A stretch of DNA of 64,000 nucleotides from Candidatus Hydrogenedentota bacterium (GTDB taxonomy: Bacteria > Hydrogenedentota > Hydrogenedentia > Hydrogenedentales > SLHB01). The stretch is from the NCBI GenBank assembly GCA_963745075.1, contig CAVUWV010000034.1:1-64000 (forward strand), written 5' to 3'. The notes below the pieces were generated by a model. The model was given only the letters and a program-made list of their open reading frames with translations, had not been told where the DNA came from and did no database searches. The position numbers were made by a program, and so were the translations under genes. Positions 25,236-26,820 of this stretch are shown piece after piece (the stretch's first letter is position 1; the number at the start of each line of letters is the position of its first letter).

Positions 25236-25264
25236 TTGTTTCTCAGGATCGCTTATGCTATACT
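25236..25264 (+). promoter_or_regulatory. sigma70-type promoter P1 of the small-peptide array
   Basis: TTGTTT-17nt-TATACT with extended -10 TG (TGcTATACT). Confidence 0.65.
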
Positions 25265-25320
25265 GTCGCCAAGCTCCATGGGGGCAACGAAGAACGATCA
25301 ACAAGAAAGGAGGTCTAGGT

Positions 25321-25401
25321 ATGTTTCTGTTGTTTGGGGTATTTGCGCTTTTCTGGTGGCTGGTGTGGAATGTGTTCTACGCAGGACTTTACCCGTTTTA
25401 A
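25321..25401 (+). CDS. Trp/Phe-rich hydrophobic micropeptide 1 (26 aa)
   Basis: SD AAAGGAGGT; MFLLFGVFALFWWLVWNVFYAGLYPF*. Confidence 0.7.
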   Translation: MFLLFGVFALFWWLVWNVFYAGLYPF

Positions 25402-25577
25402 GGCGGACGCTTAGACCCGAATTCTTGTGATGTCGGCGCGTGTTTTAAGCGGCCGGCTATCGGAAGCGGAAGGAGAAGCAGTTGATAGTGCTTCGTTGTT
25501 TCTCCCGGTCCGATCGCTCTAGAGGGTGGGGTCTAAAGTTTCGCGAGCATTCGTAAGAAACGAAAGGAGAAAAAGCT

Positions 25578-25658
25578 ATGCTTTTCTGGTGGTTTTGGGT
25601 AGCTCTTTGGTACATCCTTGCGGTCTTTTTTGAAGCTGGTTGGAACCTGCAGGTCTAG
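25578..25658 (+). CDS. Trp-rich hydrophobic micropeptide 2 (26 aa)
   Basis: SD AAAGGAG; MLFWWFWVALWYILAVFFEAGWNLQV*; absent from the ORF track. Confidence 0.7.
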   Translation: MLFWWFWVALWYILAVFFEAGWNLQV

Positions 25659-25694
25659 CAGCAGGAACACGCTAGTTTCCAGATACTGTATCGT

Positions 25695-25725
25695 GGCGGG
25701 TCCGTGGCGGGCCCGCCGTTTTTTT
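25695..25725 (+). terminator. Rho-independent terminator after micropeptide 2
   Basis: Stem ggcgggtccg/cgggcccgcc followed by T7. Confidence 0.8.
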
Positions 25726-25838
25726 GCCTCGAAATTCTCGATATTTTAGCTATATAACCCGGACGGTATTCACTTGTCTTGAATTCGTGAATTCAGGGCC
25801 AATTCTCTGAGTACGTCGCAAACGAGCCGGTTTTTCAG

Positions 25839-25867
25839 TTGTCTATCACTATGGCTTGTGTTATACT
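25839..25867 (+). promoter_or_regulatory. sigma70-type promoter P2 of the array
   Basis: TTGTCT-17nt-TATACT with extended -10 (TGtTATACT), similar to P1. Confidence 0.6.
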
Positions 25868-25931
25868 TACGCTCGCTCCACACGATGTTTAGTGTTTACG
25901 ATAGGCGGCGCTGTGAAATGTGTGAAGGGGC

Positions 25932-25960
25932 TTGAAAAAGCGCAGCGTGTCGTATACAAT
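25932..25960 (+). promoter_or_regulatory. sigma70-type promoter P3 of the array
   Basis: TTGAAA-17nt-TACAAT. Confidence 0.6.
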
Positions 25961-26074
25961 CTGCTTCGGTTTCGAAAAGGACCCTTGACGAATGTCTCGG
26001 GGCGGGCTTCGCGGGAAGCCGTGACCGGGACGGTTTGTAAGCGGAATAGGATTGCAGGAAAGGAGTTCTGGCTA

Positions 26075-26170
26075 ATGAAGGGGATTCCGAGGACCGCATT
26101 GTGGTTGTTGAGCCCGTTTACCTGGATCTGGTGGATCATCGCTTTGGTTATCCTGGTCGAAGTGTTGTAG
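26075..26170 (+). CDS. Trp-rich hydrophobic micropeptide 3 (31 aa)
   Basis: SD GGAAAGGAG; MKGIPRTALWLLSPFTWIWWIIALVILVEVL*. Confidence 0.75.
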   Translation: MKGIPRTALWLLSPFTWIWWIIALVILVEVL

Positions 26171-26281
26171 TCTTGCTATTGCGTTTCGGGCTGTAAGCGA
26201 ACAGCGGAGCGCAAGAGTTTGCTTACCGTAGTTGCCCCATGAGGGGGTGGCGTTAACGATTAAGGAAAGGAGGTTTGGTCT

Positions 26282-26335
26282 ATGTGGTGGTTGTGGTGGA
26301 TCATTGTCCTGGTTCTTCTGTACCAAGTTCTCTAA
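26282..26335 (+). CDS. Trp-rich hydrophobic micropeptide 4 (17 aa)
   Basis: SD AAAGGAGGT; MWWLWWIIVLVLLYQVL*; paralog of 3 and 5. Confidence 0.75.
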   Translation: MWWLWWIIVLVLLYQVL

Positions 26336-26404
26336 TCGAAGACACTTACCATTCGCGCGAACTTTCCTGCTTACCTTGGTAATCACGGGAGTAAGCGCAG
26401 CTCT

Positions 26405-26438
26405 TGGGGCCGAGACAGGTAGTATTCTCTCGGCCCCA
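26405..26438 (+). terminator. Hairpin after micropeptide 4
   Basis: 11-bp stem tggggccgaga/tctcggcccca, similar to the hairpin at 26781. Confidence 0.6.
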
Positions 26439-26655
26439 GTAGTTTATACTGCCCCGTTCGATTTCGTCGGCCCTCTGTTGGGACGTGATACGGTTTCGGC
26501 ATCGGTCGAAAAGTCCACTCGATCTGGTTGGCGAACGCTGAAACGAAACCCATCGAACGTTGTATAGATACTAAGGTTAAGCTCGGGTTCTACCCGTGTC
26601 TTATAATCGCTCCGGAGGAGCGGCGTCACATCTCAACAGAAGGGAGGTTGAAAAC

Positions 26656-26718
26656 ATGTTCTGGTTCTCTTGGATCTGGTGGCTGATCATTCTGGTCGTT
26701 CTGTACGAAGTCCTGTAA
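26656..26718 (+). CDS. Trp-rich hydrophobic micropeptide 5 (20 aa)
   Basis: SD GGGAGGT; TATAAT at 26602-26607; MFWFSWIWWLIILVVLYEVL*. Confidence 0.75.
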   Translation: MFWFSWIWWLIILVVLYEVL

Positions 26719-26780
26719 TCACTCTTTTCAACCGTACTGAGTTCGGATTTCGGGTCCACTCAGGCGGACGAATTGTTTGA

Positions 26781-26820
26781 GGGGCCGAAACGTTAGCGCG
26801 TTTCGGCCCCCAATTTTTTT
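26781..26820 (+). terminator. Rho-independent terminator after micropeptide 5
   Basis: 12-bp stem ggggccgaaacg/cgtttcggcccc followed by caa and T7. Confidence 0.8.

Follow-up and report, generated by a model that had tools for sequence, protein, structure and literature searches.

Tandem genes for tryptophan-rich hydrophobic micropeptides at the glnA locus of a Hydrogenedentota clade

What does the unannotated stretch between a sulfatase gene and glnA in a Hydrogenedentota genome encode, and to what end? In the 64,000 nucleotides (nt) of contig CAVUWV010000034.1 that we analyzed (the window), the region 25236-26820 (~1.6 kb) lies between these two genes, both recognized by Pfam, and holds five open reading frames (ORFs) of 26, 26, 31, 17 and 20 amino acids. 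All five are on the forward strand and none is annotated, the whole array having been missed by gene callers. An earlier note, made from the letters of the sequence alone, had proposed that these ORFs are a paralogous family of Trp-rich hydrophobic micropeptides and had offered type I toxin-antitoxin modules as one analogy. Here, we show that the five ORFs are real and conserved and are under selection on the protein. We further consider it probable that these five genuine genes make two co-inherited types of single-helix inner-membrane micropeptides, abundant, non-toxic and accessory in function, that share one origin and have been inherited vertically.

The first two genes form type 1. P1 (type 1a; 25321-25401) encodes the 26-residue peptide MFLLFGVFALFWWLVWNVFYAGLYPF, with the C-terminus YPF, and P2 (type 1b; 25578-25658) encodes the 26-residue peptide MLFWWFWVALWYILAVFFEAGWNLQV, with the C-terminus FFEAGWNLQV. 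The remaining three form type 2: P3 (type 2a; 26075-26170; 31 residues, MKGIPRTALWLLSPFTWIWWIIALVILVEVL) has a basic N-terminus, MKGxP(K/R), followed by a predicted Trp-rich helix, and P4 (type 2b; 26282-26335) and P5 (type 2c; 26656-26718) encode MWWLWWIIVLVLLYQVL (17 residues) and MFWFSWIWWLIILVVLYEVL (20 residues). Each ORF is preceded at the usual spacing by a near-consensus Shine-Dalgarno (SD) sequence, AAAGGAG(G/A/T) or AGGGAGGT; the ribosome sites read AAAGGAGGT for P1 and P4, AAAGGAGAA for P2, AAAGGAGTT for P3 and AGGGAGGT for P5. Reading the sequence bore out the number, lengths, orientation and strong SDs of the ORFs as first described, although the positions implied for them were one base off in places. 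P3, P4 and P5 have a common, ungapped 15-residue C-terminus in which, just as the earlier note had stated, the codons differ synonymously (Val GTG/GTT/GTC and Leu TTG/CTC/CTG, with stops TAG/TAA/TAA). The lower GC content reported for this stretch was likewise found, at 0.48-0.52 in the array versus 0.58-0.65 in the flanks and 0.591 in the whole 6.8-Mb genome.

The composition of the peptides is extreme. Tryptophan makes up 12-24% of their residues versus 1.4% in the long frames of the genome, aromatic residues account for 16-42%, and the grand average of hydropathy (GRAVY) is 1.3-2.0. The peptides carry no charged residue or a single E, at most one E or Q standing close to the C-terminus, except for P3, which has K, R and E. 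The helix holds at most one polar or charged residue and is uniformly hydrophobic; judged by composition, the peptides are not amphipathic. An AlphaFold2 model built on the 2a alignment predicts helices at residues 6-11 and 14-30 of P3, with a mean predicted local distance difference test score (pLDDT) of 80 and values that rise to 95 over residues 21-30. A homo-tetramer prediction for P3-type peptides scored 0.08 (mark 0.42), a result that counts neither way.

To ask whether selection acts on the peptides, we made codon alignments of orthologs and applied Nei-Gojobori counts with our own script, comparing the source genome (G000) with G003, another member of its genus (g1; six genomes including G000). 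The proportion of differing nonsynonymous sites (pN) was 0.02-0.18 versus 0.24-0.59 for synonymous sites (pS). By gene, pN and pS were 0.08 and 0.59 for P1, 0.03 and 0.54 for P2, 0.14 and 0.58 for P3, 0.18 and 0.47 for P4, the least constrained member, and 0.02 and 0.24 for P5, the most conserved one. Means of pN/pS over all pairs were 0.06-0.60. Each subtype, moreover, has a signature that is kept across genera: 1a (11 ortholog sequences) ends in YPF, 1b contains F(F/A)x(A/G)GW, 2a starts with MK(G/N)xP(K/R), and the C-terminus of nearly every type 2 peptide reads (Y/L)-(E/Q/N)-(V/A)-(L/V/I). The persistence of these signatures across genera indicates that the duplications are old and that each copy is separately constrained. 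The homolog search and coding-selection check in relatives that the earlier note had suggested thus found ORF, SD, frame and gene order conserved and pN far below pS, in agreement with its proposal of a paralogous protein-coding family with two sequence types.

We next considered whether such an array could arise by chance. A first search of the whole genome for hydrophobic, Trp-rich ORFs of 12-50 amino acids behind an SD returned eight matches: P2-P5, one paralog on contig C15 and others; P1 was caught by the motif part of the script. A strict scan (ATG start, 15-40 amino acids, at least 80% hydrophobic residues, strong SD) of the 6.8 Mb returned ten, comprising P1, P2, P4, P5, the C15 paralog, a gene at position 2956 of contig C16 and four unrelated ORFs, and 4 of these 10 matches fall within the 1.4 kb of the array. 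As a control, the strict scan was run on 832,918 bases from 80 glnA loci of other bacteria, where it gave two matches, both of them family members. These counts argue that the array is not a product of chance.

The two additional paralogs stand alone. The C15 gene (G000:C15:116314-116406, reverse strand; L093) encodes a 31-residue type-1-like peptide and is kept in G003 (C31) and in a further genome, G004 (C593). The C16 gene (G000:C16:2956-3042, forward strand; L204) encodes a 28-residue type-1b-like peptide, MFILLTLLWAPIWLIYFVLAAIADGGIL. Both have their own promoter and terminator, those of the C16 gene being TTGACA-17-TATAGT and a hairpin. Their neighbors are unrelated: a LUD/Fe-S protein, response regulators and a Reg_prop protein.

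How far does the family extend? A DNA search found the region in 5/5 congeners and, weakly, in two other genera (8/41 genomes including G000). G003 and G004 have the complete array in the same order at the same sulfatase-glnA site, with ORFs and SDs intact. In G001, G002 and G005 the contigs break inside the array, and the pieces present are intact; of the contig ends (L002, L005, L006, L012, L095), those of G001 and G002 follow P1/P2 and precede P5, and those of G005 fall in the gap from P4 to P5. The breaks may reflect strain-level variation or repeats here. Arrays of four to seven genes occur in genus g11, in the same order of 1a, 1b, 2a and then more type 2 genes. In genus g8 there is a single gene each of types 1a and 2, located on different contigs. 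The g8 type-2 gene (L067, L105, L107) adjoins a homolog of the hydrolase gene at 30416-31105 of the window, followed by glnB-glnA on the same strand, an arrangement that looks like an inversion of the glnA-to-hydrolase block relative to the window.

Profile searches drew a sharp boundary around these genera. The type 2 profile A1 matched 14/54 genomes and 3/31 genera of the bacterial family, and the type 2 profile A3 matched 14/135 Hydrogenedentota genomes and 3/66 genera of the phylum: every genome of g1 (6/6, including G000), g11 (5/5) and g8 (3/3). Across the phylum, the type 1 profile (A4) matched the same 14 genomes and one extra, for 4/66 genera including the extra one; this match (E 0.028), inside a 1209-residue frame, was judged spurious. 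When 21 of the 47 glnA sequences from the bacterial family were placed in a quick maximum-likelihood tree, the eight sampled bearers occupied one side of a branch (Shimodaira-Hasegawa-like approximate likelihood ratio test 90), a grouping that fits a single origin. The titled records nearest to the glnA of the window are metagenome-assembled genomes of Hydrogenedentales/Hydrogenedentota, at 84% and 76% identity. One record titled 'uncultured Nitrospiraceae bacterium' (L013, CAZWDH010000235.1) has a 91% identical glnA and an exact P5-type gene, and its label or binning looks wrong. Among 1.84 billion protein representatives, the 2a profile matched six proteins at E up to 0.001: four peptides of 29-31 residues, P3 itself among them; an 85-residue over-extended frame that ends in a type-2 peptide; and a 486-residue protein aligned only at profile positions 4-14. 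As far as these searches reach, the family appears rare outside the 14 genomes.

The array was proposed at the outset to be divided into separate transcription units, and its expression signals support this. We scanned the source array and those of G003, G047 and G048 with a simple sigma-70 consensus for promoters and for terminators, and read the remaining signals by eye. Unit 1 comprises P1, a conserved hairpin block and P2. Its promoter (25236-25264; TTGTTT, 17 nt, then an extended -10 element, TGC-TATACT) was read by eye; the scan did not flag it because its -35 element is weak and falls below threshold. Nevertheless, TGnTATACT and CGTTGT(T/A)T are kept before all 11 type-1a genes examined, in three genera, and a GAAAGGAGG site, too, precedes 11/11. 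The unit closes with an intrinsic terminator found by the scan (25693-25727, hairpin 25693-25719). In G003, G047 and G048, too, type 1b is followed by a hairpin and a T-run, the stem having different letters.

Unit 2 comprises P3 and P4 and has two promoters flagged by the scan. The upstream one (25839-25867; TTGTCT-17-TATACT with TG) has counterparts in G003 (TTGAGG-17-TATAGT) and G048 (TTGAGT-17-TATAGT). The main one (25932-25960; TTGAAA-17-TACAAT) has identical hexamers in G003 and G047 and is an invariant block in a three-species alignment. Of the promoters described earlier as canonical, these two were therefore recovered, whereas that of P1 is subthreshold in its -35 element and stands on its conserved box. 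A hairpin in the P3 5' untranslated region (UTR; 25994-26031) is part of the minimum-free-energy fold, and both of its stems are kept with different letters in G003/G004. A GC-rich hairpin with a weak U tail, read by eye (26406-26437), closes the unit; its stem is kept with changed letters in G003/G004, and a full terminator lies at the matching place in G048. Unit 3 comprises P5 and is preceded by a conserved block (26532-26613) with a candidate TATAAT box at 26602-26607. It ends in an intrinsic terminator (26781-26820, scan hairpin 26781-26810) conserved in G003, G047 and G048. In the three-species alignment, promoters, 5' UTRs and terminators are conserved besides the ORFs; the spacers 25730-25830 and 26345-26530 are not. 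The conservation of promoters and terminators on the peptide strand across genera thus argues for separate transcription units. In their extended -10 or near-consensus promoters, consensus SDs and hairpin terminators, these units resemble strongly expressed genes.

Metatranscriptome contigs of 85-99% identity, from four runs in four studies, cover 25241-25728 and 26538-26753. One of them extends on to 25826-25870, others begin within or before the conserved block upstream of P5, and the highest summed depth is at 25457-25518. The contigs leave 25871-26537, with P3 and P4, uncovered, a gap that carries no inference.

If the peptides were membrane-damaging toxins held down by small RNAs, in duplicated modules like ibs/sib or ldr/rdl, the array should bear the marks of such modules, and in part it does. 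The search criteria for type I systems set out in Fozo et al. 2010 (PMC2887945) include size, a hydrophobic stretch, tandem position and isolation. The array matches these: the peptides are shorter than 70 residues with a transmembrane-like stretch, as judged from their GRAVY and the predicted helix of P3; their C-termini are aromatic or polar; and their genes follow one another within a single long intergenic region, well away from the genes on either side, and have promoters and terminators of their own. The conserved non-coding blocks, in addition, could be targets of trans-acting RNAs. However, type I tandem copies as described in Fozo et al. 2010 (PMC2887945) are similar past the coding region, a sign of module duplication. 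Here, a direct-repeat analysis found that DNA similarity between modules does not reach past the ORFs (57 nt at 63-72%) and the SD. Moreover, no antisense promoter or terminator conserved in position was found in the four arrays by the sigma-70 consensus scan: a single weak opposite-strand site in the window (25926-25898) is absent from G003, there are none in G003 or G047, and the two in G048 lie elsewhere. When the 5' UTRs were folded, the z-scores (+0.96 to -1.9) were unremarkable and the SDs were not buried in stable folds; we therefore make no claim of SD sequestration. The paralogs are old and type-specific, with an order fixed across genera, no genome of the clade lacks the family, and no Pfam toxin family matched at E up to 1. 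We consequently regard the type I reading as unlikely, and the analogy with ibs/sib and ldr/rdl drawn in the earlier note was not supported. A fixed syntenic site in every clade genome, together with old, subtype-specific paralogs, is more in keeping with a resident function in the membrane than with a selfish toxin-antitoxin system.

Could the frames instead serve at the level of RNA or translation, as Trp-codon leaders or sensors or as regulatory RNAs, for example ones bound by CsrA, with the peptides as by-products? Evidence for this lies in the spacer between P1 and P2, where a 60-nt block (25459-25518) is more conserved than the ORFs: the nine distinct sequences compared, from g1, g11 and two metagenome contigs, hardly differ in it. 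In this block, 25467-25481 pairs with 25497-25512, which sets an SD-like AAGGAGA opposite UUUCUCC, and there are three GGA motifs. RNAalifold pairs the SD-like GGAGA(A/G)GCAG with UUGUUUCUCC in a consensus fold of 14 pairs, with four one-sided changes to G-U and no compensatory ones; a sense-strand hairpin is thus no more than plausible. CsrA is encoded in the genome (C24:173018-173173), and the GGA motifs offer a lead, and only a lead, toward a possible CsrA-binding RNA. The search of Rfam 15 returned only L20_leader, at 24.3 bits versus a gathering score of 58.7 (E 0.072), so that no family matched at the gathering score. A 17-mer of the hairpin found 72 stretches in metagenomes, of which two were genuine (L142, L158) and the rest chance matches. 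An 18-nt inverted repeat that seemed to join the P1 5' UTR to the hairpin was dropped, as it is not kept in G048 or genus g8.

The extreme density of TGG codons and the terminator that closes each unit would also suit a function of the RNA. However, no structural gene follows any unit, the sole downstream frame (26862-27125) not being conserved; non-Trp residues and the C-terminal motifs are conserved with synonymous change; and genus g8, which lacks both the hairpin block and type 1b, keeps both peptide types without it. On balance, a function mainly at the RNA level appears very improbable, the least favored of the readings we weighed.

A function outside the cell, as leaderless bacteriocin-like, phenol-soluble-modulin (PSM)-like or signaling peptides, is scarcely more probable. 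It would account for a tandem run of peptide genes some 20 codons long, with individual SDs and no signal peptide, and for the strong expression signals, and an Opp-type oligopeptide importer is encoded 5.5 kb away (32193-36348). Yet genes for export, immunity or modification are absent next to the array and at three other loci examined; the neighbors of the array are sulfatases, glnA, glnB, hydrolases and the Opp importer. Moreover, glnA, glnB and three unrelated genes separate the array from the Opp genes, and the peptides, hydrophobic throughout, are by composition neither amphipathic nor cationic. Leader peptides, ribosomally synthesized and post-translationally modified peptides and exported peptides thus each fail in their defining feature, because there are no downstream genes, no modifying enzymes and no exporters.

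By far the most likely physical form is a single helix embedded in the membrane, as judged from the composition, the modeled helix and the absence of a signal peptide and of a charged surface. In the reading we favor, resident inner-membrane micropeptides, types 1 and 2 would be expressed from three independent same-strand units, and each peptide would consist of essentially a single alpha-helix that inserts into the cytoplasmic membrane. Under the positive-inside rule, the basic end of a membrane peptide stays inside. The only basic residues of the long type 2 form are at its N-terminus, suggesting that type 2 peptides lie with the N-terminus in and the C-terminus out. In this topology the tryptophans would form a collar at the inner interface, and the conserved (Y/L)-(E/Q/N)-(V/A)-(L/V/I)-COOH end would lie at the outer one. 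Within the membrane the peptides might act as small subunits or modulators of larger membrane proteins, or might associate with one another. The family would have arisen once, in the three-genus Hydrogenedentota clade, and then passed on vertically. We infer, in addition, that the peptides are abundant, that the two types co-operate and that they lack toxicity.

Several observations weigh against this reading. For a bilayer, 17-20 residues make a short helix, and no recurrent neighbor gene that would point to a partner was found at the window array, the C15 and C16 paralogs or the g8 type-1a locus. The strong conservation of non-coding blocks indicates that selection acts on the RNA too, and an antitoxin RNA whose promoter is atypical could escape a simple sigma-70 scan. 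The metatranscriptome contigs are strandless and could include DNA carry-over, and one of them starts upstream of the predicted start of unit 1. A bolder variant, in which type 1 and type 2 peptides form a two-component Trp-rich system, as a hetero-oligomeric channel or a lipid-organizing 'proteolipid' scaffold that possibly arose de novo, seems to us rather doubtful; no comparable assembly is known among bacterial small proteins.

The flanks of the array hold further features. Both upstream sulfatase genes (22067-23442 and 23564-25304, reverse strand) are split over two overlapping frames each, with the N-terminal Sulfatase part in one frame and the remainder in another; the second is a single frame in relatives (L142). 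These are either a pair of assembly frameshift errors or a pair of pseudogenes. On the other side, the 87-residue frame at 26862-27125 (forward strand) has no counterpart at the loci of relatives and only a sub-threshold Pfam match, and is probably not a gene. A perfect 13-bp hairpin (27111-27142) reads as a terminator on both strands, and its position just downstream of the glnA stop suggests a shared convergent terminator. Within the array, the 7-mer CTGGTGG, which matches seven of the eight bases of the E. coli Chi site, occurs in P1, P2, P3 and P5 (within 25347-26684), on the forward strand every time; most likely it simply follows from the codons for (I/F)-W-W.

The earlier note had not recognized the family, and neither did our database searches. 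P1, P2, P3 and P5 matched no family in Pfam or NCBIfam at E up to 1, profiles A4 and A5 matched no chain in the PDB, P3 had no usable match in the ESM Atlas, and literature searches, at the level of search results, returned no description of such peptides. Small hydrophobic proteins of bacteria are a known class, and we rate the peptides as a new family in it, unusual in their tryptophan content and in their conserved organization of several paralogs in several units. No part of bacterial genomes is annotated less well than the small membrane proteins, which are little known outside model organisms; here, five to seven such genes per genome had gone unannotated in an uncultured candidate phylum. 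Tryptophan is generally held to be the costliest amino acid to make, and the conserved expression signals suggest a high output of these Trp-rich products. A sharply bounded and apparently single origin, followed by fixed subtypes, makes the family a tractable case of micropeptide gene birth and expansion. Should the peptides turn out to assemble or to act as modulators of membrane proteins, the few bacterial micropeptide mechanisms characterized so far would gain a new type.

How do they compare with known systems? Ibs/Sib and Ldr/Rdl of E. coli likewise consist of tiny hydrophobic peptides (18-19 residues for Ibs) that gene callers miss, encoded in tandem intergenic copies with promoters of their own. 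In contrast to those systems, the array has no conserved antisense signals that we found and no sequence match to them, its similarity stops at ORF and SD, and its paralogs are diverged, type-specific, fixed in order and very Trp-rich. The psm-alpha locus of Staphylococcus aureus, with four highly expressed tandem genes of about 20 codons that have their own ribosome sites and lack signal peptides, offers a similar layout of tandem ~20-codon genes, each behind a ribosome site. PSMs, however, are amphipathic and are exported by a dedicated ATP-binding cassette transporter, whereas the peptides here are uniformly hydrophobic and are made from three units with no exporter nearby. Gramicidin A, a channel former, and WALP peptides are also short, uncharged and Trp-rich, and their tryptophans anchor at the membrane interface; gramicidin A is non-ribosomal, with alternating D and L residues, and differs from the ribosomal peptides of the array, in which Trp is clustered at one end only. 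KdpF, AcrZ, MgtS and CydX, finally, are small inner-membrane regulators or subunits of fewer than 50 residues with a single hydrophobic helix, as predicted here, that sits beside larger proteins. They have no homology to the array peptides by Pfam or NCBIfam and are single genes, several of them in the operon of the partner, whereas here five to seven paralogs stand alone with no partner nearby. By analogy of form, this class would nonetheless offer the best functional parallel for the Trp-rich micropeptides of Hydrogenedentota.

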